Of a DNA stretch of 47,767 nt, positions 11,173 through 44,655 are shown in pieces. Source of the DNA: Escherichia coli (GTDB lineage Bacteria; Pseudomonadota; Gammaproteobacteria; Enterobacterales; Enterobacteriaceae); assembly GCA_024546615.1 (NCBI GenBank), contig GCA_024546615.1_5040.1, one strand, 5' to 3'. Position 1 is the first letter of the stretch, and each line of letters opens with the position of its first letter. Below the pieces are notes generated by a model that was given only the letters and a program-made list of their open reading frames with translations, was not told the DNA's origin and ran no database searches. Both the position numbers and the translations under genes were made by a program.

Positions 11173-11219
11173 GTCTCCTCTTGGGTTATAGTTACCACCG
11201 TCTTAAGAGGAGGAATTCC

Positions 11220-12800
11220 ATGTTCGTAGAAAGAGCAAAAAAAATACATAAAGGGAAATACGACTATTCCAAAGTGGAATATGTAAATAATAAAACACCC
11301 GTGACGATAGTTTGTCCGGTGCACGGTGATTTCGTTCAAATACCGCAGGGACACCTGAACTGCGAAATAGCGTGTCCAAAATGTAGAATCGACGATGTTT
11401 ATGACCGAATGATACAGCGGGCACGGGAGATTCATGGTGACAGATACTCATACGTCCGGGAATCATTCGTTTCCGTAGTCAAGAAAATGTCTATAATTTG
11501 TCCTGTACACGGGGTGTATCGGATGACACTGAACAACCATGTTCACAATGGTGCGGAATGTAAACCATGCGCACTGGCGAAACGTGGAGAATCACAACGG
11601 AAGACACTTGACAGTTTTGTGGAAGACGCGAAAAAAGTTCATGGTGACAGATACGATTATTCCAAAGTTATTTACGAGGGCAACAAAAAGAAAATAACCA
11701 TCACTTGTGCAAAACATGGTGACTTCAAACAGGAACCATATTCACATCTTTCGGGAAGAGGTTGTCCAAAATGCGGTCTCGAATCCAGAGCAAGCAAAAG
11801 TATGAGTACTCTTGAAAGATTCATTCACAAAAGCAGAGCTATACACGGTGACAAGTATGATTATTCTAAAGCGGTGTATAAAGGTAGTGACCAAAAACTA
11901 ACCATAATTTGTCCGGTGCACGGTGAATTTTCCCAATACGCAAATAACCACTCTACTCTTGGTCATCAATGCCCGACGTGTTCAAAAGCGGGTGTGTCCC
12001 GAGGTGAATTTGAAGTCTTCAACTTCGTCCGTTCCATCTGTCCCGATGCGGTACAATCCGACCGTACAACCATTGGACCGCTGGAACTTGATGTTGTAGT
12101 GCCGTCGCGCAATCTGGCAATTGAATTTAACGGTCTGTACTGGCACGATGAGCGCACGAAAGACAAGAAGTATCACATCGCCAAGCGTCACCGCGTGGAA
12201 GCCGCAGGATACCGTCTGATAAGTATCCGTGAGGATGTCTGGAATGAGCGCCGTGAGCAGGTAGAAAATATCATTCGCAACGCGCTCGGCGTGACATCCG
12301 ACAAAGTGTTTGCCCGTAAATGTGACATCGTGGAAGTTTCGACGTCTGAAGCGAAGGTATTCATGGAGAAACACCACGTGCAGGGTTTCCGGGGTGCGAC
12401 CGTTCATTATGGTTTGCAACATGATGACACCTTAGTTGCTGTGATCAGTCTGACAAACTGGCAGAAAAAGAACGAATGGGAACTGGTACGATATGCAACC
12501 GCGTGTAATGTCCCGGGTGGACTGTCCCGCTTGTGGAAACATGCTACCACGGTTAACAGCATCGTCCGCGCCTATTCATACGTTGACCGGGATTTGTTCA
12601 GCGGTTCCAGTTACGCTAATGCCGGTTTCATACTTTCAGCCACAACAGTAGGATTCAGGATCGTAAATGGTTGCACAACCGAATCGCGTGAGAAGTGGAA
12701 CCGCGCACCAGACGGAATGACACAGACGCAATGGTACGAATCAGAAGGTGTATCACGCATCTACGATTCTGGACAGGACAAGCTGTTATGGGTAAAATGA
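11220..12800 (+). CDS. Homing-endonuclease-like protein: four tandem zinc-ribbon modules, Vsr/DUF559-like nuclease core, unknown C-domain
   Basis: Four repeats of ...HGDxYDYSKV.Y...K.TI.CP.HG.F.Q.P..HL.G.GCPKCG; then ELDVVVP...LAIEFNGLYWHDE resembling Vsr FVDGCFWH motif; RBS AGGAGG; inserted after capsid terminator. Confidence 0.6.
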   Translation: MFVERAKKIHKGKYDYSKVEYVNNKTPVTIVCPVHGDFVQIPQGHLNCEIACPKCRIDDVYDRMIQRAREIHGDRYSYVRESFVSVVKKMSIICPVHGVYRMTLNNHVHNGAECKPCALAKRGESQRKTLDSFVEDAKKVHGDRYDYSKVIYEGNKKKITITCAKHGDFKQEPYSHLSGRGCPKCGLESRASKSMSTLERFIHKSRAIHGDKYDYSKAVYKGSDQKLTIICPVHGEFSQYANNHSTLGHQCPTCSKAGVSRGEFEVFNFVRSICPDAVQSDRTTIGPLELDVVVPSRNLAIEFNGLYWHDERTKDKKYHIAKRHRVEAAGYRLISIREDVWNERREQVENIIRNALGVTSDKVFARKCDIVEVSTSEAKVFMEKHHVQGFRGATVHYGLQHDDTLVAVISLTNWQKKNEWELVRYATACNVPGGLSRLWKHATTVNSIVRAYSYVDRDLFSGSSYANAGFILSATTVGFRIVNGCTTESREKWNRAPDGMTQTQWYESEGVSRIYDSGQDKLLWVK

Positions 12801-32082: not shown

Positions 32083-32100
32083 TGCGCCGGTATTCTTGTT
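32071..32100. terminator. Bidirectional terminator hairpin CCGGCGCA-GTGA-TGCGCCGG plus T-rich tail
   Basis: Between convergent genes ending at 32082 (+) and 32099 (-). Confidence 0.55.
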
Positions 32101-32314
32101 ACCACTCCGCAATTAGTACCGGATTAATCATATCTGCGCGGCGATTACCGGTATCGGCCCAATCACCTGTTTCTGATTTTTTAAAATAATTCAGAGCATT
32201 TTCTTTAGAACCCACAATTGATTTCACCAATGCAGTGTAACCCCCGACGCCATCGAAGAAAAAATAACAGATTACCCCATCGATTTTGTCCACTGCTTCA
32301 TAAGCTTGTTTCAT
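32099..32314 (-). CDS. Hypothetical protein (72 aa)
   Basis: RBS AGAGAGGG and ATG downstream of promoter 32347-32375; track ORF trimmed to MKQAYEA. Confidence 0.45.
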   Translation of the reverse strand: MKQAYEAVDKIDGVICYFFFDGVGGYTALVKSIVGSKENALNYFKKSETGDWADTGNRRADMINPVLIAEW

Positions 32315-32346
32315 CTTGTCTACCCTCTCTGTTGTTGATATGAATA

Positions 32347-32375
32347 ACTCTAAACTACTTTGACGCACTCGTCAA
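32347..32375 (-). promoter_or_regulatory. Sigma70-like promoter TTGACG-17-TAGAGT overlapping palindrome TTGACGCACTCGTCAA (32360-32375), embedded in 3' end of upstream gene
   Basis: Spacing read directly. Confidence 0.5.
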
Positions 32376-32948
32376 CGGTAAAACTAACTTTTCTGCTTCC
32401 TGAATGTACCAGTCGTAATTCAGTGCTCCCCAGTCGAAGTCTTTAGCGTCGGCACACTCTGTCACCTTCCATCCTGCACACATACTTGTTTCGCGCACTG
32501 CATCGTGCTTACTGCGACTCTTCGTGTGGATACGCTCGTCCCACGGTGTACCAATGCTGTCGAGGTCGCCCGGTTGACCTGTAATCTCACGCATTACCGC
32601 ATTGTACACATCGTCCTTGACACCATTCTTACGCTTCCATGTACCTGGTGTACCAGTGGGCGGTAACAGCTTGACCAGTGACCCACCGTTACGCGAGATA
32701 AATACACGTGTGGTATTCTGCATCTCCTGTTCAGCGCCCCACTCAGGCCAACGCATCACCAGACGTGCCGAACGAGGTACTTTGGCGCGCAGCATGAAGT
32801 CGAACGGGTCACGGTGCTGCGTGATGAACGTGCGGATGTCAGTGTCAAACAGAAGTGCGGCTTCAGCGGCGCGGGCAACAATCATCGCCGATGGGTCTTG
32901 ATGCCACTGGTATTTGTACTCGTAACACCCTTTTCTTTTAATTTTCAC
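32355..32948 (-). CDS. Hypothetical protein (197 aa) sharing GTPWDERIH motif with 37785-38834
   Basis: Motif DSIGTPWDERIHTKS versus DSTGTPWDERIHSTS in the 349-aa protein. Confidence 0.45.
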   Translation of the reverse strand: MKIKRKGCYEYKYQWHQDPSAMIVARAAEAALLFDTDIRTFITQHRDPFDFMLRAKVPRSARLVMRWPEWGAEQEMQNTTRVFISRNGGSLVKLLPPTGTPGTWKRKNGVKDDVYNAVMREITGQPGDLDSIGTPWDERIHTKSRSKHDAVRETSMCAGWKVTECADAKDFDWGALNYDWYIQEAEKLVLPLTSASK

Positions 32949-33828
32949 GGGTTGCCTCCAGCATTTCTAAAATTCGATTGTCCCATTTCAACCATTCGGT
33001 ACAACCATCAAAACCAGATAGTCCAGCATTAACGAAAGAAGAATGAGTTAGTTTTTCGATAAATTCCATTTTTCCACCTATGCCAGATAAAACTCGGAGT
33101 AACTGAAAATCAAATGGCGTACTTCTTTTCAATTTCCTCAAGCGATATTTATAATTATTGCTGATACCGACCTTCATATATTCCCCACCTTTGGAAGCAA
33201 GTACATAAAGGGAAGCCATCTGGTTACGTTTAAATCCACTCTTAGAACAGTCTTGACATCCTTGTCCACCGGATACGTGATCTATAGCCAATTTTTCAAA
33301 ACTACCGTGAACAGGGCAAATTATCTTTATTTTATGATGATTACCTTTATATTGAGATTCCGAATAATCATACTTATCCCCATGTACTGCGCGGGCTTTC
33401 TCAATCCATTCTTCGGTGTTATAAAGAGGAAGTCGTCCTTTTCCAGGACCTCCTGCGCATTTCGCGCACCCGTGGCCTTTTAGATGATTGCCGGCTAATT
33501 GGAGGAATTCCCCATGCTCTCGACAAATGATTATTATTTCTGAATGTCGTTTTTTATACTTAACCTTCGAATAATCATACTTATCTCCATGTACTGCACG
33601 GGCTTTCTCAATCCATTCTTCAGTGCTGGATTTTTTTGTCCCACCACAAACTGGGCAGCCGGAACCAGAACAGTGAGACGTGGGTTCTTGTCGGAAATCT
33701 CCATGCAATCGACAAACAATGGTCACTTTATGTTTTGAAGTACGATACTCGACCTTCGAATAATCATACTTATCTCCGTGTACCGCACGGGCTTTCTCAA
33801 TCCATTCTTCTGTGTTCAATCTTCTCAT
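32938..33828 (-). CDS. Homing-endonuclease-like protein: three tandem zinc-ribbon modules plus C-terminal T5orf172 (GIY-YIG-like) domain
   Basis: Three repeats of EEWIEKARAVHGDKYDYS...; C-terminal YVLASKGGEYMKVGISNNYKYRLRKL...GCTEWLKW; contains three ~55-bp DNA direct repeats. Confidence 0.6.
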   Translation of the reverse strand: MRRLNTEEWIEKARAVHGDKYDYSKVEYRTSKHKVTIVCRLHGDFRQEPTSHCSGSGCPVCGGTKKSSTEEWIEKARAVHGDKYDYSKVKYKKRHSEIIIICREHGEFLQLAGNHLKGHGCAKCAGGPGKGRLPLYNTEEWIEKARAVHGDKYDYSESQYKGNHHKIKIICPVHGSFEKLAIDHVSGGQGCQDCSKSGFKRNQMASLYVLASKGGEYMKVGISNNYKYRLRKLKRSTPFDFQLLRVLSGIGGKMEFIEKLTHSSFVNAGLSGFDGCTEWLKWDNRILEMLEATREN

Positions 33829-35348
33829 TCTATTACCATTATGTAATTATTCACATCTCGCTGATAGAGAGATTTCACAATATCAGTCTCCAGATTCAAC
33901 ATTGTTGTTTTTTCCCAAGACTTACATATGGATTCCACCAAAATTTCATATTTGTTTTCATAAAAAATGACGATTCCGTCAGTATTAGTTTGCGGTACGA
34001 TTAATCCGGGTACACGAGTTACAAGTTGGTCTACCAACATTGCCAAACAGAGTTGACCTGTAATAGTAATACTCAGGAGACACTTATGGTCACAAAATGG
34101 GCTAAATTTACTCCCCATGTTCCCAAATGTACCATTAAGAGCAAGTTTCAATGCCGCATCAACTGTTTTATCTCCCGCTCGTTTTGCATCACGACGACGA
34201 ATGAACAGTTGTTCATATACGTCGCAAAAAGTTTCACTAAGGTGTTCCGGATAGTACCTATTCTTTATACTAATGGAAGGGTACATACTTGTACAGTCTT
34301 TGTTTTGTAAATTGTGTGTTTGGGTAGAATGCACAACGTAGTTCGGAATACTACTGTGAATACCTCCCAATCCGAACGAATATTCGACACCATCAACTGT
34401 GACGGTCATATCACTAAACACACCTTTTGTGGTCAGTAATTCGTCCTGTTGTTTCTTCGTGAGTACAACCCCACGAATGCGTTCCAGAATTTGATTGAAC
34501 TCCGGTCGTTCGAATTTGATATAAGGGGGTATGCAATCTGCAAGTGCAATACGTTCACGAATGGTTACTCCGGAGCAATCTACCCCGGCCTTTTCCAGCT
34601 CGTGAACGAATATATCTTTGCCGATTTTAGTGTCGGCGTGGTTCATGAAGTTACGTCCGTATTGCTTTGTCAGTTCCTCACGGAAATGGATTTTGTCGAG
34701 TGAACGTACAAAGAATTTCAGCGTCTCTCGCACGTCGTGTTTGTTATATACGATGAGGATATCTTTCTGCGCATCGTTCAGCACCATTCCGACCGGGAAT
34801 GGCAGGTCTTTTACGTTGGGGGACTGCATGCCCACTTCCAACGCCTTCAGACTGGTGCGCCGGGCTTTATTATCAAAGTGATGAATTTTGTACAGGTCAA
34901 TCTGCTCGAAAATCTGGTCGCGGTCCCATACAATTTCGGGCCACTGACCTTCGGGTTTAATTTGTGATTGTGCTTTTGTGTAAATCTGTTCCAGTGTACA
35001 GCCTGGTGTATTGACCACGTAGTGCAACACCGGATAGTCGAATGCCAGGTTATTAAATCCAATCCCACGGGCCTTACTACATCCCAGGTTGAACACAAAT
35101 TCGATTAATTGCGGTTGCTCGTTTTTGCGGTCACTAATCTCGAAGATTAACTCCATACCCGTCGCAGCGTGAATAAATGAGGCAGTGAAGATATTCGGAT
35201 ACGTCTCGATGTCCCATCCCCAGTCCCGCGGGTCCAGTGGTGCAACGCTGGAGAACGCCGAATCAGCCCCACAGTGAGGGCAATTGTGGAGGTCAGCGGG
35301 ATAATTTTTACCGCAAGTTGCATCCTCGCATTTTGATAAATAGTGCAT
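33825..35348 (-). CDS. Compact family-B DNA polymerase with 3'-5' exonuclease motifs and N-terminal zinc finger
   Basis: Exo I WDIETY, Exo II FNNLAFDYPVL, Exo III YNKHDVRE; motif A DCTSMYPSI, motif B KLALNGTFG, motif C TNTDG; N-terminal C-x4-C-x11-C-x2-C. Confidence 0.7.
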   Translation of the reverse strand: MHYLSKCEDATCGKNYPADLHNCPHCGADSAFSSVAPLDPRDWGWDIETYPNIFTASFIHAATGMELIFEISDRKNEQPQLIEFVFNLGCSKARGIGFNNLAFDYPVLHYVVNTPGCTLEQIYTKAQSQIKPEGQWPEIVWDRDQIFEQIDLYKIHHFDNKARRTSLKALEVGMQSPNVKDLPFPVGMVLNDAQKDILIVYNKHDVRETLKFFVRSLDKIHFREELTKQYGRNFMNHADTKIGKDIFVHELEKAGVDCSGVTIRERIALADCIPPYIKFERPEFNQILERIRGVVLTKKQQDELLTTKGVFSDMTVTVDGVEYSFGLGGIHSSIPNYVVHSTQTHNLQNKDCTSMYPSISIKNRYYPEHLSETFCDVYEQLFIRRRDAKRAGDKTVDAALKLALNGTFGNMGSKFSPFCDHKCLLSITITGQLCLAMLVDQLVTRVPGLIVPQTNTDGIVIFYENKYEILVESICKSWEKTTMLNLETDIVKSLYQRDVNNYIMVIE

Positions 35349-35365
35349 CTCTGTTCCTCTCTGTA

Positions 35366-35392
35366 AGAAAAGCCCCGTGAGGGGCTTAATTG
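35366..35392 (-). terminator. Hairpin AAGCCCC-TCAC-GGGGCTT plus U-rich tail on minus strand, upstream of polymerase RBS (terminator/attenuator)
   Basis: Read directly; followed on minus strand by RBS AGAGAGGAACAGAG and polymerase ATG. Confidence 0.45.
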
Positions 35393-35527
35393 TTAACCTT
35401 TCGTATACTTATTTAAACCATTCTGGTTAATGTATTCCCGGCGTTGCTCCTGCACCTGTTTGATAGCCTTTTCCAGTTCGGCTAGCTTTTCATCAAACTG
35501 TTTCAGTCGCTGGTCATGTTCGGTCAT
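35393..35527 (-). CDS. Small coiled-coil protein (44 aa)
   Basis: MTEHDQRLKQFDEKLAELEKAIKQVQEQRREY...; RBS AGAGAGGTG; below track cutoff. Confidence 0.3.
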   Translation of the reverse strand: MTEHDQRLKQFDEKLAELEKAIKQVQEQRREYINQNGLNKYTKG

Positions 35528-35575
35528 GATGCACCTCTCTGTTAAATTACCCCGGCTTGCACCGGGGCGTTGTGG

Positions 35576-36388
35576 TTATGCTACTTTCTGACAGTGTTGC
35601 GCGATTAACTCTTCGCTCCAGCCGGGCATGCCGAGCAATTGTGCTTTGGTGTACACCGTGCCGTTGTAGCTGTACTTCTCTTCAACAACCGGCGGAGGTG
35701 TTACCAGCAGGTCAGTTGCTGGCGGCGGTGTTGCAGGTGCTGGGGCAGCCGGGGCTGGGGTTGATGCTACCTGAGCGGGTGCGCCAGCACCGAACACGCT
35801 TGCTGCATCCGGACCGCTGCCTTCACGAACAATCGCTTCGCCAGGACGTGACAGTTCGAGCAGGTTTGGGTTCAGATACACGCCCGGAGTTTTGGACGGC
35901 TTATTACCCTTCGCTACGATGTTCACGCGGACATAATCGCCGAGCTTAATAGCGTTTACGTCCTGAATCGCATCGAGCGGATTATATTTGCCAACATGAT
36001 AACAGTTGTACGGGATGCGGGTGTTCAGGTGTAATACCCAGTGACCGCGTTTGTATTCGTCGCTGTTTGGCGCGTGACCGGCTTTGTTTGGGATGTCGCT
36101 GTCACCGTCGATTACTTTCCAGGAAAAGTCCGGGCGACGAGTGGTAGCAACATCATAACCGTTCTCAGCGTCCAGTGCCGCCATAACAATTTGTTTACCC
36201 CATTCGGTATCTTTCCAGTCTGCTTCGCCAGTTTTAGGGATTGCGATACCGATGTAAATTTCTTTAACCGGCTGACCATCTTTACCAATAACCGGCTGCT
36301 TTGTGACATCATCAGTGCGTACATTTTGTTTCAGCGGGTGACCGTGAATCAGGCGAGCAACAGGGGTAACGAAAGTAAATTGAGCCAT
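35576..36388 (-). CDS. ssDNA-binding protein, DUF2815-like
   Basis: Pattern resembles DUF2815 phage SSBs; Pro/Ala-rich linker and conserved C-terminal tail; adjacent to Cas4-like nuclease. Confidence 0.55.
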   Translation of the reverse strand: MAQFTFVTPVARLIHGHPLKQNVRTDDVTKQPVIGKDGQPVKEIYIGIAIPKTGEADWKDTEWGKQIVMAALDAENGYDVATTRRPDFSWKVIDGDSDIPNKAGHAPNSDEYKRGHWVLHLNTRIPYNCYHVGKYNPLDAIQDVNAIKLGDYVRVNIVAKGNKPSKTPGVYLNPNLLELSRPGEAIVREGSGPDAASVFGAGAPAQVASTPAPAAPAPATPPPATDLLVTPPPVVEEKYSYNGTVYTKAQLLGMPGWSEELIAQHCQKVA

Positions 36389-36442
36389 CTTGTAAATCCT
36401 CTCTGCTAAGTGTGGGAGACCCTCTGTCTCCCGGTGATTTGA

Positions 36443-36471
36443 ATACTACGTTAGTTTGACGAGTGCGTCAA
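36443..36471 (-). promoter_or_regulatory. Sigma70-like promoter TTGACG-17-TAGTAT overlapping palindrome TTGACGAGTGCGTCAA (36456-36471); 5'-UTR hairpin GGGAGAC/GTCTCCC at 36414-36432
   Basis: Spacing and hairpin read directly. Confidence 0.5.
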
Positions 36472-36474
36472 CAG

Positions 36475-37602
36475 TTATTTTCGGGAAAATACATTTTTAA
36501 TTGCACGTTCATCGACCTGTTCCAGTTTGACACCCGTGACAGGTGTTTCAGCGTACTGCTCCACTACGGACGGATCGATACCCTTTTTGACACACTGTGC
36601 GGGTGTGTCCAGTTCCTGCGGCTTACGCACATCAACACCCTGCAACTCCGCCATGAATATAACCTGGTCCACCGGAACATCTTTCTTCCAGCGCTTGCGA
36701 CCATACGTGGTTTTAGCGCTGTAGAATGTCACGTGTTGCCCCTGTTTAATCTCGTGTAGGGCTTGTTCTTCCAGACCGCTGAGACGCATTTTAATCATCT
36801 CCTGTGCACGCTGCAGAAGTCGCAGTTCGACACCCAACGCATGACCGGACAAGTTGTGCGTCTGCAGCGATGTCACGTAATCGATACCGGCGTAACTCTG
36901 TTGCTTCAGTGTGTCACAGTGCGCACGTGCGCTACAGTCGAGACAGTGTGGTCCGGGTGTACACAGTGGGGCGGCGTCCAGTACGCGGGGCATCGTCTCG
37001 TTCACCTGCTGTCGGTATGCGCACAGTTCATCGTATGTGAGCGCCCATTTGCGCACTGTACCCTCACTGGTGAATCCGCGAGGCTGCACGATGACCAGTT
37101 CGATAATGTCCGGCGGTGTCTGGAATTGCTCGCAAATGCTGAATGCTTCAATTAACAGCTGCCAGTTTTCAAACGGGTCAACAATGCGGTGACCGAATTT
37201 AGCGTCCCAGACGCGTAACACCTTCGCTTCCGGTACATATACCCACGCATCGGGGATACAGTACCAGTCGCTGTAACCTGGTACAGGACACACTTCCTCA
37301 ACGTGAAGGTCATGTAGTCGCTCATGACTGTTACAGTAACCCCATACCTCGTTAAAATACTCGCGGGCTGCGTCAAACAGTTCGTCCGTGATAACAATGC
37401 CATCCTTTGACAGACTACCTACCAGGTCACTGAATGGCTCATTTTTGAATAACTTCTGAGCCACTTCGTGTGCTGCCCGGCCCTCAAGCCGGGATTGTGA
37501 CGGTTCGACGTCCAGTGGTGGATAAGCCTGCTGCGCCCGGAATGACCCATTACAGGTCATCCATTGTCCGGCATCAGATACTTTGGGTAGTTGTGTGGTC
37601 AT
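36475..37602 (-). CDS. Cas4/RecB-family PD-(D/E)XK nuclease (DUF2800-like) with Cys4 cluster
   Basis: N-terminal Cys (MTCNG) plus C-terminal C-x2-C-x5-C (CLDCSARAHC); VWDAKFG resembling motif III. Confidence 0.6.
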   Translation of the reverse strand: MTTQLPKVSDAGQWMTCNGSFRAQQAYPPLDVEPSQSRLEGRAAHEVAQKLFKNEPFSDLVGSLSKDGIVITDELFDAAREYFNEVWGYCNSHERLHDLHVEEVCPVPGYSDWYCIPDAWVYVPEAKVLRVWDAKFGHRIVDPFENWQLLIEAFSICEQFQTPPDIIELVIVQPRGFTSEGTVRKWALTYDELCAYRQQVNETMPRVLDAAPLCTPGPHCLDCSARAHCDTLKQQSYAGIDYVTSLQTHNLSGHALGVELRLLQRAQEMIKMRLSGLEEQALHEIKQGQHVTFYSAKTTYGRKRWKKDVPVDQVIFMAELQGVDVRKPQELDTPAQCVKKGIDPSVVEQYAETPVTGVKLEQVDERAIKNVFSRK

Positions 37603-37781
37603 TTCAACACCTTTGATTTCACGGTGTATTCATATTTTCTGTTATTACTCTTATTCTTTTCAGAAGCGATATTGACAGCCTCTTTCTTATCAACATAAAC
37701 ATCAACCACTTCTGGTTCGAATTTACGTCCAAACGGTGATTGATATTCTTTCATTAAAATATAAACTTTAGCCCCTTGCAT
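37599..37781 (-). CDS. Hypothetical protein (60 aa)
   Basis: RBS GGGGGAGTGAGA; ATGA overlap with downstream gene. Confidence 0.45.
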   Translation of the reverse strand: MQGAKVYILMKEYQSPFGRKFEPEVVDVYVDKKEAVNIASEKNKSNNRKYEYTVKSKVLK

Positions 37782-37784
37782 CTC

Positions 37785-38834
37785 TCACTCCCCCAAATGC
37801 GCTTTAACACGTGCCACGAACGGACCGATTTTATCCGGGTGGGCGTTCAGTTCCTGTACCGACGACATGCCATCCTGCGCCAGTAGCATATTCACCGTTA
37901 CCACATCAATCTTGCCGTGACGCTCGGTCAGGAAGGTCATGAGGCGCGGGAAGTCCCATATGGTGTGGTCTACCATACGCTCTAACGCTGGAGAGACAGT
38001 GCCCGACGGTGGGAAAGGAACGCCGTCATCGAATTGCGGCACAGGTGGTGCAACAACTACCGGCGGCGGTACAGGCAGTGGCGGAATACCCGCAACGGTT
38101 TGCTCGGTTACCACACCTGCGTCAGTGTGGAAGTCGTCACCCGGAGGTGTTACAGCTGGTTCGACGTCGTCGCTTTCCCCAACACCAACACCACCGTTGC
38201 CGCCAGAGCCGGGTCGGCGGTCTGTATCCCAGGATTCATCGCCCGGCGGTGTTACGGGTGGTTCTAGCATCTTGTTAGAAGCTTCGATGAGTTCGTCGAC
38301 TTCTTCTCGTGTGGGTTCACCAATTTCCACGGGTTCCAGGGCTTTAACTTCTTCATCAGTCATTACTGGTGTTTGAGTATGCGACTCAGCTTTCACCGAC
38401 TCAACAAATGCTGCCCACTCTTCTTCATCCATATCCTTCGGCTTACGACGCAAACGCCACGTACCGTCCACATTGAGCGCTTTGCTGGTAGAGTGGATAC
38501 GCTCATCCCACGGTGTACCGGTTGAGTCGGTAGTGGGTGGGTCGATATCCGGTTTAACTGGTACGCACAATTCAACCATTTCGCGAGTTACTTCAATACT
38601 TCTCCCGTCACGGGGAGCCAGTGACTCAACCTGTTGAGCGGTCGTGTCGATTTCCGGCTCATCCATCATTTGTGGCGCGGGTTGTTGCAGTGCTTCAGTG
38701 CCGATAACCAGTGGGGTTACGGTCACATCGACCGGGTAACCATCTTTTTTGCTGGCAATTTCGATAAGCGCTTTACCGAATTGAAACAATGCGATGGTAT
38801 CATCGTTCGGGATGGTCAGTGTGATGTTACTCAT
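37785..38834 (-). CDS. Acidic, proline-rich hypothetical protein (349 aa)
   Basis: First gene of leftward replication block; low-complexity Pro/Glu/Asp-rich regions; shares GTPWDERIH motif with 32355-32948. Confidence 0.5.
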   Translation of the reverse strand: MSNITLTIPNDDTIALFQFGKALIEIASKKDGYPVDVTVTPLVIGTEALQQPAPQMMDEPEIDTTAQQVESLAPRDGRSIEVTREMVELCVPVKPDIDPPTTDSTGTPWDERIHSTSKALNVDGTWRLRRKPKDMDEEEWAAFVESVKAESHTQTPVMTDEEVKALEPVEIGEPTREEVDELIEASNKMLEPPVTPPGDESWDTDRRPGSGGNGGVGVGESDDVEPAVTPPGDDFHTDAGVVTEQTVAGIPPLPVPPPVVVAPPVPQFDDGVPFPPSGTVSPALERMVDHTIWDFPRLMTFLTERHGKIDVVTVNMLLAQDGMSSVQELNAHPDKIGPFVARVKAHLGE

Positions 38835-38868
38835 GTCTCTCTGTTCTCCGTTGTTGTCGATGTGGTGA

Positions 38869-38897
38869 ACTCTATATCACCATGACGCAGCCGTCAA
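38869..38897 (-). promoter_or_regulatory. Sigma70-like promoter TTGACG-17-TAGAGT overlapping palindrome ATGACGCAGCCGTCAA (38882-38897)
   Basis: Spacing read directly. Confidence 0.5.
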
Positions 38898-38911
38898 TAC
38901 TAATTTTAAAT

Positions 38912-38954
38912 TTGACACGGGGTGGGTGGTGCGACATAATGACGCCATCGTCAA
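38912..38954 (+). promoter_or_regulatory. Sigma70-like promoter TTGACA-17-CATAAT with palindrome ATGACGCCATCGTCAA (38939-38954) overlapping -10/+1
   Basis: Near-consensus hexamers; palindrome in operator-like position. Confidence 0.55.
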
Positions 38955-38974
38955 TATTTGAGAAGGAGTGAGAG

Positions 38975-39151
38975 ATGAGCCAAATTAAACGCAAAGTAAC
39001 ACATCGTGTTTGCCCTTTATGTGGGTATGTAATGACTCAACTGGAAATAGACAGACTTCGTTTTCCGGTTGAGTGCCCCAGATGTGGCGAACACAACACA
39101 AACGAGTTTCAACCTCTCAAATGGGAGTCCGACAACAGTGACACAAATTAA
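38975..39151 (+). CDS. Small zinc-ribbon protein (58 aa, C-x2-C ... C-x2-C)
   Basis: RBS GAAGGAG; VCPLCG and ECPRCG pairs; below track cutoff. Confidence 0.45.
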   Translation: MSQIKRKVTHRVCPLCGYVMTQLEIDRLRFPVECPRCGEHNTNEFQPLKWESDNSDTN

Positions 39152-39298
39152 ACAACTGCTCCGGCCTTCTTACGGCTGGTACAACTCGGTCAGTAAGAAG
39201 GACAAATGGTTCCTCGACGATGTGCAGATACCGATGTATGTGGCACGTAAACTAATCAGAAAAGCACGTATGGTTGAATCGAACAGCGTGCGCAAAGT

Positions 39299-40957
39299 GT
39301 GGGAGATGTGATGCAACTGCGCCCATATCAGTCCAGTCTTGTGACTGGGATCAATAATTATTGGTCAACAAACCCACGGGGTAAAGTGCTGGCGGTGCTT
39401 GCGACAGGTGGTGGGAAGACTGTTATTTTCTCATCTATTATCGCTGCCGAACAAGGTGCGACATGTGCCATTGCACACCGCCAGGAACTCGTCAGTCAGA
39501 TGAGTCTCACGCTTGCCAAAAACGGTATCTATCACCGCATTGTCGGTTCGAATAAAACCGTGAAAAACTGTGTGAAGATTCACATGGATGAATTAGGTAA
39601 GACATTTTACGACGCTGGAAGTAAACACGCGGTCGCCAGTGTGGACACAATCATCCGGCGTGGCGAGCAACTTGCCAACTGGTTACCGTCTGTTCGTCTG
39701 TGGGTTATCGATGAGGCACACCATGTACTTAAAGATAACAAATGGGGCAAAGCCGTGCAGATGTTCCCCAATGCTCGCGGGCTGGGGGTTACAGCTACAC
39801 CGTGTCGTGCGGATGGTAACGGTCTGGGAAGTCATGCAGATGGCGTGTTTGATACTATGTTCGAAGGCGTGGCAATGGGGGAACTCATACGAGATGGGTA
39901 TCTGACCGATTACAAAATTTTCGCACCTCCCAGTAGTTTCTCACGTGAACAAATTAAGGTGAGCGAGTCCACGGGGGATTTCAACCTGAACCAGATGAGG
40001 GAGGTCGTTAACGGCTCATCACTGGTGACACACGATGAGAAAACCATCACCGGTGATGTTGTTGCTCAATATCTGAAAATTGCCCGTGGTAAATCCGGCG
40101 TGACATTCACTGTCGACGTGGCGAGCGCTGAGGAAATCGCGGAACAGTATAATAAAGCAGGTGTCCCGGCAGCGGCAATAAGCTGTAACACTCCTGACCT
40201 TGAACGATTCGCAGCGGTGCGAAAATTTAAAAATAAAGAGATATTACAATTAGTTAACTCCGAGATTCTGACCGAGGGCTTCGATTGTCCCGGCATTGAG
40301 GTTGTTTCATTCGGTCGTCCAACCGAATCGTACAGTATGTATAGTCAAATGTTTGGCCGCGCCCTCAGACCATTACCAGGTAAAACCCACGCAATTATTA
40401 TTGACCATGTGGGTAACGTCATGCGCCACGGTTTACCGGATGCACCGCGTGAGTGGAGTCTTGACCGTCGGGAGCGTCGCACGGGTAAAAGTGAACCATC
40501 TACGGTGCGTGTGTGTACAGCTTGCGCGGCAGTGTATGAGCGGTTCCGTGACGCGTGTCCTGACTGTGGCGAACCTGTGCCAAAACCGGCGCAACGTAGT
40601 GGTCCCGAATTCGTAGACGGTGACCTGTACGAGCTTGACCCGGACGTACTGGCGCAGATGCGTAACGAGGTTGTGGGAGCACGTGAGACACCCGAGGCAA
40701 TGCGTGACAGACTGACTGGTCGCTACATGCCACAAGCTGGTGTCATAAGTGAGGTACGAAAACAAATAAAACGTCTTGACGCGCTCGTCAAACTGGACCA
40801 TACTCTTGCTCAGTGGGCCGGTTATCGCCGTGCGGAAGGTCTGAGCGACAGCGAAATATTTCGTAAATTTTACCTGACGTATGGTGTGTCATGGCTGGAG
40901 GCGCAGGCGCTCAAAGCGGCTGATGCGGATAAATTACGGGAGAGGATTGGATTGTGA
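39299..40957 (+). CDS. SF2 DEAD/DEAH-box helicase
   Basis: Walker A LATGGGKT, motif II VIDEAHH; RBS GGGAGA. Confidence 0.75.
   Translation: MGDVMQLRPYQSSLVTGINNYWSTNPRGKVLAVLATGGGKTVIFSSIIAAEQGATCAIAHRQELVSQMSLTLAKNGIYHRIVGSNKTVKNCVKIHMDELGKTFYDAGSKHAVASVDTIIRRGEQLANWLPSVRLWVIDEAHHVLKDNKWGKAVQMFPNARGLGVTATPCRADGNGLGSHADGVFDTMFEGVAMGELIRDGYLTDYKIFAPPSSFSREQIKVSESTGDFNLNQMREVVNGSSLVTHDEKTITGDVVAQYLKIARGKSGVTFTVDVASAEEIAEQYNKAGVPAAAISCNTPDLERFAAVRKFKNKEILQLVNSEILTEGFDCPGIEVVSFGRPTESYSMYSQMFGRALRPLPGKTHAIIIDHVGNVMRHGLPDAPREWSLDRRERRTGKSEPSTVRVCTACAAVYERFRDACPDCGEPVPKPAQRSGPEFVDGDLYELDPDVLAQMRNEVVGARETPEAMRDRLTGRYMPQAGVISEVRKQIKRLDALVKLDHTLAQWAGYRRAEGLSDSEIFRKFYLTYGVSWLEAQALKAADADKLRERIGL
40776..40804 (+). 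promoter_or_regulatory. Internal promoter TTGACG-17-CATACT with palindrome TTGACGCGCTCGTCAA inside helicase 3' coding region
   Basis: Spacing read directly. Confidence 0.4.
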
Positions 40958-41157
40958 GTGAGTGGATTAAGTGTAGTGAGCAGATGCCTGAACCTGGTGT
41001 TCCGGTGTTAGTAGTCAGTATGATTGGTAACGCCGTTCAAAACAATGTGTACGAATGGGACGGTCGAACATGGAGCGATTTTCGAAACGATTATGGCGAA
41101 TATGAACCAGAAGTATTTACACACTGGATGTCAATGCCGGAGGCTCCGCGTCTATGA
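40954..41157 (+). CDS. DUF551-like protein
   Basis: MSEWIKCSEQMPEPG... paralogous to 7469-7669. Confidence 0.55.
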   Translation: MSEWIKCSEQMPEPGVPVLVVSMIGNAVQNNVYEWDGRTWSDFRNDYGEYEPEVFTHWMSMPEAPRL

Positions 41158-41627
41158 CACCAACACTTCTCGAATGGCAACGTAAACACGGTATCACGGC
41201 TGAGGCGCTGGCTGACCTTGTGACAATGGTGGGACTGGATGTCCCACGCTCAAGCAAAGGTACGCCTGAAGCGCGTGTACAGGATGAGGCGCGACTACTG
41301 GCAAGCAAAATGGGCTGGCGACTTTTTCGCAATAATGTGGGTGTTCTGAAAGATGAGCGGGGTGTACCGGTACGCTACGGCATCTGCAACGACTCCCCGG
41401 CGATGAACAAGCGTATCAAGTCGAGCGACCTCATCGGTATCCGCCCCGTGGTTATCACGCCCGATATGGTCGGGTCAACCATTGGACAGTTTGTGGCGCG
41501 TGAGGTAAAGAAAGCCGGGTGGAAGTATAAAGGTACGGAACACGAACAGGCACAGCTTGCATTTGGGACACTTATTATCGGGCTGGGCGGTGATTTTAAA
41601 TTTTGGTCAGGGGAGGGGGAGTTGTAA
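41154..41627 (+). CDS. VRR-NUC domain nuclease
   Basis: WRLFRNNVG...SDLIGIRP...REVKKAG pattern; typical neighbour of phage helicase/primase. Confidence 0.55.
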   Translation: MTPTLLEWQRKHGITAEALADLVTMVGLDVPRSSKGTPEARVQDEARLLASKMGWRLFRNNVGVLKDERGVPVRYGICNDSPAMNKRIKSSDLIGIRPVVITPDMVGSTIGQFVAREVKKAGWKYKGTEHEQAQLAFGTLIIGLGGDFKFWSGEGEL

Positions 41628-41631
41628 GGGA

Positions 41632-41660
41632 TTGACCACTCCGTCAACCTGTGCCATACT
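41632..41660 (+). promoter_or_regulatory. Sigma70-like promoter TTGACC-17-CATACT overlapping palindrome TTGACCACTCCGTCAA (41632-41647)
   Basis: Spacing read directly. Confidence 0.5.
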
Positions 41661-41689
41661 GCAACAAATCACCTAATGGAACCGAATTT

Positions 41690-41968
41690 ATGAGCAAAGA
41701 ATACATTTTAGAAGTAGCTTACACAATGGCGCAGCGCGACGGCTTTGGCACTCTTACCCGCGACGGCGTTGCGGCTGAGGCTGGCGTGGCGATGGGTTCA
41801 GTTAACCATCACTGGGTCAGGATGTCCGCACTTCGTGAAGCAGTGATGCAACGGGCAGTGGAAGAAGAAAACCTCGAATTGATTGGACAGGGAATGGCGC
41901 TGGGTGATAGCGTTGCCAAATCCGCACCACTGGAGCTACGCACCCGCGCACTGACCACCCTGCTTTAA
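41690..41968 (+). CDS. Small HTH protein, TetR-like N-terminal fold (candidate transcriptional regulator)
   Basis: TLTRDGVAAEAGVAMGSVNHHW resembles TetR-family HTH; track ORF trimmed to MSKEY start. Confidence 0.45.
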   Translation: MSKEYILEVAYTMAQRDGFGTLTRDGVAAEAGVAMGSVNHHWVRMSALREAVMQRAVEEENLELIGQGMALGDSVAKSAPLELRTRALTTLL

Positions 41969-41990
41969 TAACTAAAACAGAGAGACAGAG

Positions 41991-44348
41991 ATGACACATA
42001 TGAATCCCCCTGTGCAGGGGGCTGATTCCCTGCACTTTATCGTCTGCAAAACAGTACCTTCACAGAAGAAGCCGGGACGTACGGAGAAGATGCCATGTAA
42101 CGCTGCCGGTGATGTGGTCAGTCTGCACGTTGCGGACCGGATGTCTCACGCTCAGGCAGTTGCGGCGGCTTCCGCACTGGGTGAGTCATATCGTCCCGCG
42201 GTTATTCTTACGGGTGACGGACGTTTCTGCGTGGATATCGACGGCGCACTGCAGGACGACAACACCTGGTCGCCGCTTGCGCTGGAGTTATGCACCACTT
42301 TTGCCGGTTGTTACGTGGAAGTGAGCAACAGCGGTAAAGGCTTGCACATTTTTGGTTACAGCCCGTCCATCCCCGAACATGCCTGTAAAAATATTCCACT
42401 ACACATTGAACTGTACACCTCTGACCGTTTTATCTGCCTGGGGAGCAACGCACGAGGTGACATGATGTTCAACGCATCTGCGCCGCTCAACGCCACGGTT
42501 GCACGTTATTTCCCGCAGACCGAACAAGTTGCGGCGGTGGAGTGGACAACGACTCACGCTGAAGGTTCGTGTCCGATTGAGGATGATGTGAAACTCATCG
42601 AAAAAGCCTGTTCCAGTAAAGGCGGTGTCGCGGCTGTTTTCGGTGGTAAAGCAACATTCAAAGACCTGTGGACGCGCAACGTTGAGGTACTGAGTGATGC
42701 GTATCCGGATGAGGACCGTGAATATGACGGGTCAAGCGCTGATGCAGCATTAGCCCAGCATCTGGCGTTCTGGTGCGGCGGTAACTGTCAACGTATTGAG
42801 CGTCTGATGCGTCTCAGTGCCCTTGTCAGACCAAAATGGGACAGCCATAAGAGTTACCTTCAACGCACCATCCTGGGCGCTTGCGCACGTCAGACGACTT
42901 ATTACAGCGTCGGTGCACCAATTGAACTGGTAACTCCCGCGCAGGTTGTCGAGACGGGTGCGCCGGTTATCCGCAGTGGGTATCAGTTCATTGGAGGCTC
43001 ACAGCTTGTTGACCACTTCAAAGGCTGCGTGTATGTGGCAGACAGTCACCGCATTCTCACACCTAACGGTCAGATGCTGAAGTCCGAGCAGTTTAACGCG
43101 ATGTACGGTGGTTATGTGTTTGCACTGGATGACGGTAACGAAAAGACCACCAAAAAGGCTTTTGAAGCGTTCACCGAGAATCAGTGCATCATGTTCCCGA
43201 AGGTTGATCGCTCGACATTTCGTCCGGATTTGCCACAGGGTGCAATCATTGAGGAGGATGGTCTGCGTCACGTCAATACGTACATACCGGTGACGGTGGC
43301 GAGCGCCCCCGGCGATGTGACACCTTTCCTCACTCATCTGGCCAAACTGTTACCCGTCGAGCGCGACCGTGACATTCTGTTGTCCTACATGGCAGCGTGT
43401 GTACAGTACAAGGGTGTAAAATTTAAATGGGCACCATTGTTACAGGGTGTTGAAGGTAACGGTAAAACACTGTTCACACTGTGCGTAATGGAAGCGGTCG
43501 GGTCACGTTACAGCCACATGCCGCCAGCGCAGGAAATTGGTGAGAAGTTCAACGCCTGGTTGTTCGATAAAATATTTATCGGCGTGGAGGATATTTATGT
43601 CCCGGAGCAAAAACTCGAACTGATTGAGACGCTCAAGCCGATGATTACCGGCGAGTACCTCGCCAAGCGTGCGATGCAACAGGACCAGGTAATGCACCGC
43701 CTGTGTGCTAACTTCATGTTTAACAGTAACCACAAGAACGCCGTGCGCAAGACCGCTAATGACCGCCGGTTCGCCATTTTCTACACCGCGCAGCAGGAGC
43801 ATATGGACATTGTGCGCGATGGTATGGGTGGCGACTACTTCCCCAACCTGTATGACTGGCTCAAACGTGGCGGTGGATTTGCAGCCGTAACGCATTATCT
43901 GGAGAACTACGCCATTCCCACACAACTTAACCCGGCGACACATTGTCAGCGTGCCCCGGAAACAAGTAGTACCCACGAGGCTGTGACAGCATCACTCGGC
44001 AGTGTCGAGCAGGAAATTATGGAAGCAATCGACGAGGGTCGCACGGGCTTCGCGGGGGGCTGGGTGAGTAGTAAAGCACTGGATAATCTGTTACGCCAGA
44101 TGCGCGCTGACCGCGCTGTGCCGGTGGGTAAACGTCGCGACATGATGCGCCAACTGGGTTACGACTGGCACCCGGCGCTTAAAGACGGGCGTGTGAATAA
44201 CGTAATAATGATTGATGGTGGTAAACCGCGTCTCTACATCAAGATTGGACATATTCATGCTAACCTCACAAATGCGGCGGACGTGGCGCGCCATTACGCA
44301 GCAGCACAGGGTGATACAAGTGCGTTAGCCTTTGCAGAAACTAAATAA
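41991..44348 (+). CDS. Primase-helicase (P4 alpha/D5-like, SF3 helicase C-domain)
   Basis: 785 aa; Walker A GVEGNGKT, Walker B FIGVEDIYV; N-terminal primase-like domain; RBS AGAGAGACAGAG. Confidence 0.7.
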   Translation: MTHMNPPVQGADSLHFIVCKTVPSQKKPGRTEKMPCNAAGDVVSLHVADRMSHAQAVAAASALGESYRPAVILTGDGRFCVDIDGALQDDNTWSPLALELCTTFAGCYVEVSNSGKGLHIFGYSPSIPEHACKNIPLHIELYTSDRFICLGSNARGDMMFNASAPLNATVARYFPQTEQVAAVEWTTTHAEGSCPIEDDVKLIEKACSSKGGVAAVFGGKATFKDLWTRNVEVLSDAYPDEDREYDGSSADAALAQHLAFWCGGNCQRIERLMRLSALVRPKWDSHKSYLQRTILGACARQTTYYSVGAPIELVTPAQVVETGAPVIRSGYQFIGGSQLVDHFKGCVYVADSHRILTPNGQMLKSEQFNAMYGGYVFALDDGNEKTTKKAFEAFTENQCIMFPKVDRSTFRPDLPQGAIIEEDGLRHVNTYIPVTVASAPGDVTPFLTHLAKLLPVERDRDILLSYMAACVQYKGVKFKWAPLLQGVEGNGKTLFTLCVMEAVGSRYSHMPPAQEIGEKFNAWLFDKIFIGVEDIYVPEQKLELIETLKPMITGEYLAKRAMQQDQVMHRLCANFMFNSNHKNAVRKTANDRRFAIFYTAQQEHMDIVRDGMGGDYFPNLYDWLKRGGGFAAVTHYLENYAIPTQLNPATHCQRAPETSSTHEAVTASLGSVEQEIMEAIDEGRTGFAGGWVSSKALDNLLRQMRADRAVPVGKRRDMMRQLGYDWHPALKDGRVNNVIMIDGGKPRLYIKIGHIHANLTNAADVARHYAAAQGDTSALAFAETK

Positions 44349-44370
44349 GCCCTTCGGGGCTTTTTTTTTT
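44347..44370 (+). terminator. Intrinsic terminator GCCC-TTCG-GGGC plus T10
   Basis: Read directly. Confidence 0.75.
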
Positions 44371-44380
44371 GCAATTAGTA

Positions 44381-44409
44381 TTGACGGACTCGTCAATAGG
44401 GCGTATATT
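44381..44409 (+). promoter_or_regulatory. Near-consensus sigma70 promoter TTGACG-17-TATATT with palindrome TTGACGGACTCGTCAA (44381-44396)
   Basis: Read directly; preceded by conserved GCAATTAGT. Confidence 0.65.
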
Positions 44410-44590: not shown

Positions 44591-44616
44591 CAGCCCCTGA
44601 ATGGGGCTTTTTTTTT
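44591..44616 (+). terminator. Intrinsic terminator AGCCCC-TGAAT-GGGGCT plus T9
   Basis: Read directly. Confidence 0.75.
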
Positions 44617-44626
44617 GCAATTAGTG

Positions 44627-44655
44627 TTGACGAGTCCGTCAAGGTAGGTTATCTT
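44627..44655 (+). promoter_or_regulatory. Sigma70-like promoter TTGACG-17-TATCTT with palindrome TTGACGAGTCCGTCAA (44627-44642)
   Basis: Read directly; same GCAATTAGT upstream context as 44381. Confidence 0.6.

Follow-up and report, generated by a model that had tools for sequence, protein, structure and literature searches.

Organization of the replication module

The window, that is, the whole 47.8-kb stretch of DNA analysed, very probably represents a complete genome of a Jedunavirus-type myophage, and the region described here the replication module standard for that genus; no terminal repeats were found when the window ends were examined. A 9-kb query matched 72 records with about 90% nucleotide identity over 80–90% of its length, the genes lying in the same order and direction in them, and about 70 deposited Jedunavirus genomes have a module about 90% identical to this one, a genome-scale similarity and synteny that place the window in the genus. 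A sequence-only reading made earlier had described the region as a divergently transcribed phage replication cassette with a leftward and a rightward block; the description holds, all the ORFs it listed are present at the coordinates it gave, and the cassette itself is already known and ordinary for Jedunavirus.

The module would be transcribed both ways from a control region of about 140 bp. The bidirectional palindrome–promoter region placed earlier at 38869–38954 is recovered there, as judged from promoter-like sites and palindromes: it contains a pair of sigma70-like promoters facing away from each other, and the palindrome TGACG-N4-CGTCA occurs in it twice. The leftward promoter, TTGACG-17-TAGAGT (38869..38897, minus strand), has the palindrome TGACGcagcCGTCA (38883–38896) lying over its −35 hexamer, and promoters are annotated at the equivalent position in the KpV79 record. 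The rightward promoter predicted from the sequence, TTGACA-17-CATAAT (38912..38953, plus strand), is near-consensus with 11 of 12 matches, and the second palindrome, TGACGccatCGTCA (38940–38953), directly follows it in an operator-like position. An internal leftward promoter-like site, TTGACG-17-TAGTAT (36443..36471, minus strand), the −35 hexamer of which lies within the palindrome TGACGagtgCGTCA, also has its equivalent annotated as a promoter in KpV79.

The leftward block (all genes on the minus strand) begins with a gene coding for an acidic, Pro-rich 349-aa protein of unknown function (37785..38834; phrog_11133, E 3e-90), followed by a 60-aa ORF of unknown function (37599..37781) which gave no Pfam or PHROG matches. 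The next gene codes for a 375-aa DUF2800 exonuclease of the PD-(D/E)XK, Cas4-like fold class (36475..37602; PF10926, E 1.5e-20; PF12705, E 2e-5), which also matches the phrog_69 exonuclease, so the Cas4-like nuclease proposed earlier is present as a DUF2800 and PDDEXK_1 protein. It is followed by a gene for a 270-aa gp2.5-like single-stranded (ss) DNA-binding/annealing protein (SSB) with a Pro/Ala-rich linker (35576..36388; phrog_7011, E 5e-101). Of the label "DUF2815-like SSB" the SSB part stands on this PHROG match and the DUF2815 part does not, as no Pfam match was found even at E ≤ 10; a sequence search against the PDB likewise gave no match, and "DUF2815 protein" is the name given to one relative in GenBank. 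A small 44-aa ORF (35393..35527), where relatives have a 38–41-aa gene annotated, separates the SSB gene from the polymerase gene.

The rightward block (plus strand) starts with two small overlapping ORFs (38975..39311), one coding for a 58-aa zinc-ribbon protein (38975–39151) and the other, of up to 80 aa, ending at the helicase start. The predicted SF2 helicase was recognised as such and is RadD-like, with a C-terminal Cys4 finger (39299..40957; ResIII, E 3e-18; Helicase_C, E 2e-11; NCBIfam RadD, E 6e-41); its translation likely begins in fact at position 39311, with an ATG that is coupled to the stop codon upstream (TGATG). A 67-aa ORF of unknown function (40954..41157; phrog_924, E 2e-13) precedes the gene for a 157-aa putative PD-(D/E)xK nuclease, possibly VRR-NUC-like (41154..41627; phrog_93 endonuclease, E 1e-19). 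Its earlier naming as VRR-NUC is a motif-level guess, favoured by weak matches of 4 out of 53 distant relatives to PF08774 (VRR_NUC; E ≥ 6.5e-4), the window protein itself having no Pfam, NCBIfam or PDB match. Residues D92, E117, K119 and Q134 are invariant; the AF2 model built from 28 close homologs reached a pLDDT of 47, and the profile of the 53 relatives gave only spurious S19 matches in the PDB. The following 105-aa protein has a TetR-type HTH (41651..41968; PF00440, E 3e-6; NCBIfam TetR, E 3e-8) and is a candidate for binding to the palindromes.

The block ends with a 785-aa AEP primase-polymerase with an NrS-1 helix-bundle domain fused to an SF3/D5-like helicase (DUF5906; 41991..44348), in agreement with the D5-type primase-helicase suggested earlier. 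Both the helix-bundle and the D5/P4-type NTPase domains were found (PF22763, E 3e-20; PF19263, E 9e-16), along with phrog_1829 (E 5e-180) and PDB matches to the NrS-1 primase (6k9a, 6a9w, 6k9c) and a 797-aa "DNA primase" chain (7ola).

A family-B polymerase encoded by two ORFs

Downstream of the 44-aa ORF, the leftward strand carries in succession a 507-aa ORF (33825..35348), a 296-aa endonuclease gene (32938..33828) and a 197-aa ORF (32355..32948). The first matches the PHROG profile phrog_1252 over positions 23–507 of 663 (E 9e-164) and aligns to residues 1–505 of the intact polymerase of E. coli phage ZCEC13, in which an uninterrupted gene codes for 704 aa (507 + 197). The third matches positions 512–654 of the same profile as well as phrog_15833 (E 1e-89) and shares 91% identity with ZCEC13 residues 510–704. 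The 507-aa ORF is the front 72% of a 704-residue family-B polymerase, cut by a homing-endonuclease gene into two separately translated pieces, hereafter pol-N and pol-C. Because the profile continues in the next-but-one ORF, the left boundary of 33825 drawn by the sequence-only reading omits the endonuclease gene and the C-terminal part of the polymerase (32355–33828).

Pol-N comprises the Zn ribbon, 3′–5′ exonuclease, palm, fingers and the KxY strand and ends in ...YQRDVNNYIMVIE before its stop codon, while pol-C is the thumb. Pol-C starts with GTG within the end of the endonuclease gene, which it overlaps by 11 nt, and has its own GGAGG Shine-Dalgarno sequence 6 nt upstream. At the junction ZCEC13 reads YQRDVNNYIQVGTDGKIKRKG, whereas the window reads ...NYIMVIE and a stop, plus (M)KIKRKG, so that four codons (GTDG) are lost, IE and M are gained and the junction is not seamless; silent changes flank it. 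The break interrupts a hairpin, in the loop that leads from the strand bearing the KxY motif to the first strand of the thumb.

All three exonuclease motifs and the polymerase motifs A, B and C attributed earlier to the 507-aa ORF are indeed there and are invariant in 40 homologs: Exo I (DxE; D46/E48), Exo II (Nx2-3F/YD; N99/D104), Exo III (Yx3D; Y201/D205), motif A (D351), motif B (K401) and motif C, which reads N-T-D-G. The N-terminal Cys4 zinc finger was also correctly recognised, its ribbon (C7, C12, C23, C26) being conserved. DVTSxYPS (D351), KLALNGxYG (K401), NTDG (D456) and NNYI align to the motifs of Pol II, KOD and Sso PolB and correspond to the family-B consensus for A (DxxSLYPS), B (KxxxNSxYG), C (DTD) and KxY, with the sole deviation of the first Asp of motif C, which is replaced by an invariant Asn (N454). 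In the profile alignment to KOD, NNYI falls on KKKYA and GKIKRKG on GKITTRG.

The AF2 model of an intact homolog (pLDDT 89.7) has the three-dimensional PolB fold, and its top Foldseek matches are archaeal PolBs (E about 5e-15). Neither pol-N nor pol-C matched Pfam DNA_pol_B or DNA_pol_B_exo1 at E ≤ 0.01, the NCBIfam search of the two fragments returned weak Pol II matches without a family-level one, and an intact homolog gave a PF10108 (PolB-exo) match below the cut-off (E 0.002). Neither closer structural similarity to protein-primed (phi29-type) PolBs or piPolBs nor TPR1/TPR2 insertions were found. The polymerase is a divergent family-B lineage recognised by PHROG 1252; the profile searches and structure prediction proposed earlier as a check returned this polymerase profile and a PolB fold.

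Compared to known archaeal and bacterial PolBs (KOD/9°N/Tgo, E. coli Pol II, RB69 gp43), with which it shares about 12–17% identity, the window polymerase has no N-terminal domain, the Cys4 ribbon standing directly before Exo I, and has short fingers, with about 50 residues from motif A to motif B; it also differs in motif C (N-T-D-G instead of D-T-D) and in having no Pfam DNA_pol_B match. Its 704 aa put it near the archaeal PolBs and E. coli Pol II in length; it is really reduced only in the fingers, which are short, and by the absence of the N-terminal domain.

The endonuclease gene and the origin of the split

The 296-aa protein contains three treble-clef Zn-finger repeats at its N-terminus (EEWIEKARAVHGDKYDYS...) and a T5orf172/MUG113 (GIY-YIG-clan) nuclease domain at its C-terminus, both Pfam scores being above the cut-offs, and matches the phrog_681 endonuclease (E 6e-67); it combines the nuclease domain and DNA-binding module of a free-standing homing endonuclease. 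The gene has a GC content of 40%, and its ATG overlaps the pol-N stop by 4 nt (ATGA). A palindrome copy inside pol-N (33968–33981) was considered as its promoter and rejected, having no acceptable −10 element.

The insert is polymorphic among close relatives at one precise site. The polymerase genes of ZCEC13, SBP, KpV52, HHU1 and PEAT2 are intact, those of ZCEC13, SBP and PEAT2 having no endonuclease gene, and the junction is identical in the split alleles of JYSS3, FZ14, KpV79, pKp383, KpVB3 and JD001. Other inserts at the same site in relatives include a 233-aa two-repeat version, a 278-aa T5orf172 allele and an unrelated 181-aa HNH-AP2 gene, and JD001 has a decayed remnant. The uninterrupted ZCEC13-type sequence, ...AACAACTATATTCAGGTTGGTACGGACGGTAAAATCAAG..., is the putative endonuclease target.

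Taken as a whole, these observations are in all probability best explained by a polymerase split by a homing endonuclease. A free-standing T5orf172/GIY-YIG-type endonuclease gene would have invaded the 704-residue PolB gene, which would therefore be expressed as two polypeptides, pol-N and pol-C being made separately. We infer that the two would reassociate non-covalently into an active polymerase, as gp43A/B of phage 25 do, and that the endonuclease would cut uninterrupted alleles in co-infecting relatives and spread by repair. Such repair, dragging flanking polymerase sequence along, would explain the low-GC (39%), highly divergent 700-bp tract that split alleles share upstream of the insert. 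Over codons 271–505, synonymous sites are saturated, with a pS of 0.82 compared to 0.31 upstream, and the GC content is 39% compared to 48–53% elsewhere in the polymerase gene. All 27 phage records with the core allele at ≥ 87% appear split, as seen in those opened or sized, and the next best match is an intact allele at 67%. On sequence grounds, the linkage of the tract to the insert fits co-conversion.

The tract could also have arisen by recombination unrelated to the endonuclease, as mosaicism extends over the entire polymerase gene in the genus, with an identity between the window and SBP of 28–88% over residues 41–520 and of 95–100% in the thumb. The endonuclease may, on the other hand, have brought with it some 700 bp of low-GC polymerase sequence of foreign origin, in which motifs A, B and C are encoded; split-allele phages would then run on a chimeric two-subunit PolB with a xenologous catalytic core and a native thumb. 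The peptide DSxGTPWDERIH is conserved and common to pol-C and the acidic 349-aa protein, which carries DSTGTPWDERIH. Both proteins could use it to dock on one shared partner in the replisome, and as a docking motif it would be new; no mention of PWDERIH turned up in literature searches. The joint reading, in which the insert arrived with a foreign core and, separately, this peptide is a docking motif, is rather doubtful.

Group I introns holding endonuclease ORFs are frequent in phage polymerase genes, for instance in SPO1 and related phages, and the insert lies at a conserved catalytic-core site, as would be expected if it were a self-splicing intron or an intein and the polymerase were restored at the RNA or protein level. 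This is nevertheless very unlikely. Rfam covariance models run over 32200–34200 found no ribozyme at the gathering threshold or even at E ≤ 10, and the endonuclease ORF occupies the whole gap, overlapping both polymerase ORFs, so that a ribozyme core would have no non-coding sequence in which to lie. Pol-N ends in a TGA stop and the endonuclease is in a different frame, so the insert is not an intein, which would be an in-frame insertion without stop codons. Pol-C begins at its own GTG with a strong Shine-Dalgarno sequence, and the loss and gain of codons at the junction would not be left by seamless splicing.

It is hardly more credible that the split PolB gene no longer functions, leaving replication of the genome to the NrS-1-like primase-polymerase/helicase alone. 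In phage NrS-1 the primase-polymerase is the replicative polymerase, so PolB here need not be the only one, and the 785-aa protein is related to that self-sufficient enzyme, matching its helix-bundle domain and SF3 helicase region (PF22763; 6k9a, 6k9c). Unlike the NrS-1 enzyme, it sits alongside a dedicated PolB and so is probably a primase-helicase rather than the sole replicase. Both halves of the polymerase are under purifying selection (dN/dS 0.04–0.10 for pol-N and pol-C; 0.09 for pol-C), the catalytic residues are invariant, and seven independently isolated split alleles contain no stops or frameshifts and keep the pol-C Shine-Dalgarno sequence and start codon.

The view of the sequence-only reading that the 507-aa ORF, having every exonuclease motif and motifs A, B and C, is a complete compact polymerase much shorter than typical family-B enzymes, with the 197-aa ORF as an unrelated accessory gene, retains practically no credence: by sequence comparison it is already refuted by the profile, which pol-N leaves at 507 of 663 and pol-C resumes at 512–654, and by the ZCEC13 alignment, the two ORFs being colinear with the intact 700–724-aa polymerases of ZCEC13, SBP, HHU1 and thousands of metagenomic homologs, and the 507-aa protein alone would have no thumb. 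The compactness deduced from ORF length is an artefact of the mobile endonuclease gene. The main value of the split-polymerase reading is this correction, since ORF length alone was misleading, and polymerase phylogenies or pangenomes built from such split ORFs would be misled in the same way.

Comparison with related phages and split genes

The closest comparison is with other Jedunavirus phages, namely Klebsiella phages JD001, KpV79, JYSS3 and FZ14 and E. coli phage ZCEC13, which share with the window the DUF2800 exonuclease, gp2.5-like SSB, polymerase, helicase, TetR-like protein and primase. The differences are at the allele level only: the window endonuclease is the 296-aa three-repeat form shared with JYSS3, and downstream of pol-C the DUF2493 gene of relatives gives way to another small gene. 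Many relatives are already annotated in GenBank with two DNA polymerase genes and an endonuclease in between; literature searches on Jedunavirus found no discussion of a split polymerase. The genus offers, at a single site, a natural series that includes intact alleles, at least three different endonuclease inserts and one that has decayed, and this series could be used to study the homing-endonuclease life cycle, co-conversion in an essential gene and a PolB with its thumb in trans.

There are precedents for an essential replication enzyme being divided between two cistrons, the break point of which is occupied by a free-standing homing endonuclease gene. The nrdA gene of phage Aeh1, split by mobE, reportedly consists of two such cistrons, the products of which co-purify and are active. 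Gene 43 of Aeromonas phages 25 and 44RR is split in the same way into 43A and 43B, and gp43A/B of the T4-related phage 25 co-purify and are active (PMC2988022). The window differs from these systems in the polymerase lineage, its PolB being a minimal phage enzyme that lacks the N-terminal domain, and in the endonuclease family, which is T5orf172 or HNH-AP2 in Jedunavirus instead of seg/mob; pol-N and pol-C are predicted here from their genes, whereas activity is on record for gp43A/B of phage 25 and is reported for the Aeh1 fragments. Unlike those split systems, Jedunavirus has several unrelated endonucleases at one site, with intact alleles coexisting in the genus.

The two parts of the polymerase gene

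The 507-aa length of the family-B DNA polymerase is an artefact: a homing endonuclease has split the gene. Its ORF (33825-35348, minus strand, hereafter pol-N) has no Pfam match and aligns with PHROG 1252 'DNA polymerase' at an E-value of 9e-164, confirming the polymerase assignment and covering only positions 23-507 of 663. Positions 512-654 are covered by a second ORF of 197 aa (32355-32948, minus strand, pol-C), which also matches PHROG 15833 'DNA polymerase' and follows pol-N on the same strand after a 296-aa endonuclease ORF (32938-33828). In ZCEC13, an E. coli phage of the same genus, the polymerase gene is uninterrupted and codes for 704 aa, exactly 507 + 197, so the compact polymerase proposed in the sequence-only reading is only a part of the enzyme.

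In the alignment across the junction, ZCEC13 reads ...YQRDVNNYIQVGTDGKIKRKGAYEY... and the window ...YQRDVNNYIMVIE-stop, followed by (M)KIKRKGCYEY... The stop codon of pol-N is overlapped by the endonuclease ATG (ATGA), the last 11 nt of the endonuclease gene overlap pol-C, and pol-C starts with GTG located 6 nt after GGAGG. An intron or intein was rejected, as Rfam gave no match in the entire window at gathering thresholds and nothing intron-like in 32200-34200 at E ≤ 10, the endonuclease ORF occupies the entire gap between the polymerase parts, pol-N terminates with its own stop, and the three ORFs do not share one reading frame; it follows that the enzyme is produced as two separate polypeptides. 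The split is already present in GenBank as two 'DNA polymerase' CDSs on either side of the endonuclease gene, and the literature search found no paper discussing a split Jedunavirus polymerase.

The endonuclease and the divergent polymerase tract

The endonuclease matches MUG113 and T5orf172 (GIY-YIG clan) above cut-offs as well as PHROG 681 'endonuclease', and its N-terminal half consists of a treble-clef zinc-finger unit repeated three-fold. Inserts at the identical junction are found in several related phages: FZ14 has the same gene with two zinc-finger repeats (233 aa), KpV79 and pKp383 share a T5orf172 allele of 278 aa whose DNA-binding half differs and whose last 40 residues are identical (38% identity overall), KpVB3 carries an unrelated 181-aa HNH-AP2 gene, and JD001 retains a decayed remnant. 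The polymerase gene is intact in ZCEC13, CWW26, KsaM-C1, SBP, KpV52, HHU1 and PEAT2.

A second free-standing homing-endonuclease-like gene (11181-12800, plus strand, 539 aa) lies directly 3' of the major capsid gene (10089-11123). It has DUF723/treble-clef zinc-finger repeats in common with the polymerase-site endonuclease at about 40-50% identity and differs from it in the C-terminal nuclease region (PHROG 559/3339, weak MTES_1575 match).

The split alleles have in common a distinctive tract at polymerase nt 811-1521, with a GC content of 39%, close to that of the endonuclease gene (40%), versus 48% for the first 810 nt and 53% for pol-C. Its synonymous sites are saturated relative to ZCEC13 (pS 0.82, compared to 0.31 upstream). 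In the phage database, the core allele is found at ≥87% protein identity in 27 records, and all of those inspected, or whose size could be gauged, are split; the next-best core allele (67%) is intact, with a third class following at 45%. The pattern fits co-conversion, or flanking sequence imported with the endonuclease gene. Recombination independent of the endonuclease is also a possible source of the tract because the entire gene is mosaic within the genus, with residues 41-520 being 28-88% identical and the thumb 95-100% identical between the window and SBP.

Comparison of 33825-35348 with two further loci (L001 and L007) likewise showed that, inside a single genus, the polymerase gene is a three-way mosaic. 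Residues 271-507, the catalytic core, fall into at least three allele classes (~100%, 58-67% and 45% protein identity), while the thumb and flanking genes stay at 90-100%.

The replication module and its control region

By DNA similarity, the window is assigned to a Jedunavirus myophage. It is a whole contig of 47,767 bp, filed at NCBI under 'Escherichia coli', its proteins being labelled hypothetical, and has the appearance of a complete lytic genome assembled inside a bacterial isolate's data, with no terminal repeat present at its ends. The polymerase region matches 74 phage records and the remaining 9 kb of the module 72 records, with ~90% identity and the same gene order; the region is a standard Jedunavirus replication module, already deposited.

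ORF calling recovered at the same coordinates all the ORFs named in the sequence-only reading, and most of their functions were upheld. The module includes a DUF2800/PD-(D/E)XK exonuclease (36475-37602, profile match), an SF2 helicase, as proposed, of RadD-like type (39299-40957, profile match), and a protein read as a D5-type primase-helicase (41991-44348) that indeed combines an NrS-1-type primase-polymerase helix-bundle domain with a DUF5906/SF3 helicase and matches NrS-1 PDB chains. The putative DUF2815-like single-stranded DNA-binding protein (SSB, 35576-36388) is an SSB, gp2.5-like according to PHROG, and has no match to Pfam DUF2815. The gene labelled VRR-NUC (41154-41627) matches PHROG 93 'endonuclease'; the VRR-NUC label is tentative, based on invariant residues D92/E117/K119/Q134 and on weak PF08774 matches in 4 of 53 distant relatives. 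Genes not listed previously code for a TetR-type HTH protein (41651-41968), a zinc-ribbon protein of 58 aa (38975-39151) and an acidic protein of 349 aa whose function is unknown (37785-38834).

The peptide DSxGTPWDERIH(T/S)xS is common to pol-C (32526-32543, minus strand) and this acidic protein (38493-38510, minus strand), the product of the first leftward gene, which are otherwise unrelated. It is conserved in both across relatives, near-invariant in polymerase homologs, had no mention in the literature searched, and may be a docking motif. Downstream of pol-C there is a small gene of ~71-89 aa (32099-32368, minus strand, likely ATG 32313; PHROG 25318) that has a palindromic promoter to itself (32347-32375), the position of the gene being occupied in relatives by a 113-aa DUF2493 gene.

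The promoter scan located a rightward promoter TTGACA-17-CATAAT (38912-38940) and a leftward promoter TTGACG-17-TAGAGT (38897-38869), each accompanied by one copy of the palindrome TGACG-N4-CGTCA. The window contains 13 copies of this 14-nt palindrome versus 0.08 expected by chance (5404, 7397, 8476, 15201, 18851, 32361, 33968, 36457, 38883, 38940, 40777, 44382 and 44628). In 10 or 11 cases the palindrome provides the -35 region for an intergenic site that resembles a promoter, has the form tTGACGnnnnCGTCA-N8-TAnAnT and is aimed at downstream genes. For the rightward early-type promoter, the copy at 38940-38953 lies directly past the -10, an operator-like position. Since relatives also keep the sites and the KpV79 annotation has promoters overlapping them, the bidirectional palindrome-promoter region noticed earlier is sound, and the pattern points to one class of promoters or operators used across the phage, with a dimeric regulator binding them. 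Just 3' of the primase-helicase gene, the right-hand end of the module is marked by two terminator hairpins with T-runs (44349-44395 and 44600-44641, plus strand), each immediately followed by a ttagtaTTGACGnnnnCGTCA promoter-like site.

Fold and function of the split polymerase

For an intact homolog (P0001), which has 704 aa and shares 96% identity with ZCEC13, the AlphaFold model (mean pLDDT 89.7, pTM 0.81) was compared with the PDB using Foldseek, and the top matches were all family-B polymerases, including 9°N, KOD and Tgo (E ~5e-15), in agreement with the proposed family. Of the motifs reported earlier, Exo I-III, A and B show no variation among 40 homologs; motif C (33969-33980 in pol-N) is present as N-T-D-G instead of the canonical D-T-D, its first residue being Asn (N454 of intact homologs) in 40/40. 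The polymerase family is large, with 6,155 database matches and 953 phage records, and includes Seurat-like, NP1-like, PaMx42-like and crAss-like phages.

In the profile-to-PDB alignment, NNYI falls on the KxY motif of KOD (KKKYA) and GKIKRKG on KOD GKITTRG, and in the model the break lies in a loop, residues 506-509, that joins strands 500-505 and 510-513. On this evidence, pol-N holds the zinc ribbon, exonuclease, palm, fingers and KxY strand, and pol-C the thumb; going by the domain limits of KOD, the break is at the palm-thumb boundary.

The split enzyme is probably functional, as suggested by dN/dS values against ZCEC13 of 0.04 (codons 1-270) and 0.09 (pol-C), with similar values against KpV79, and by seven split alleles containing no stops or frameshifts. 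In the T4-related phage 25, co-purification and polymerase activity are documented for the split proteins gp43A and gp43B (PMC2988022); by analogy, pol-N and pol-C would reassemble in this phage. Compared with Pol II and archaeal PolBs, the 704-aa phage enzyme is near in size; it is without their N-terminal domain and its fingers are short.
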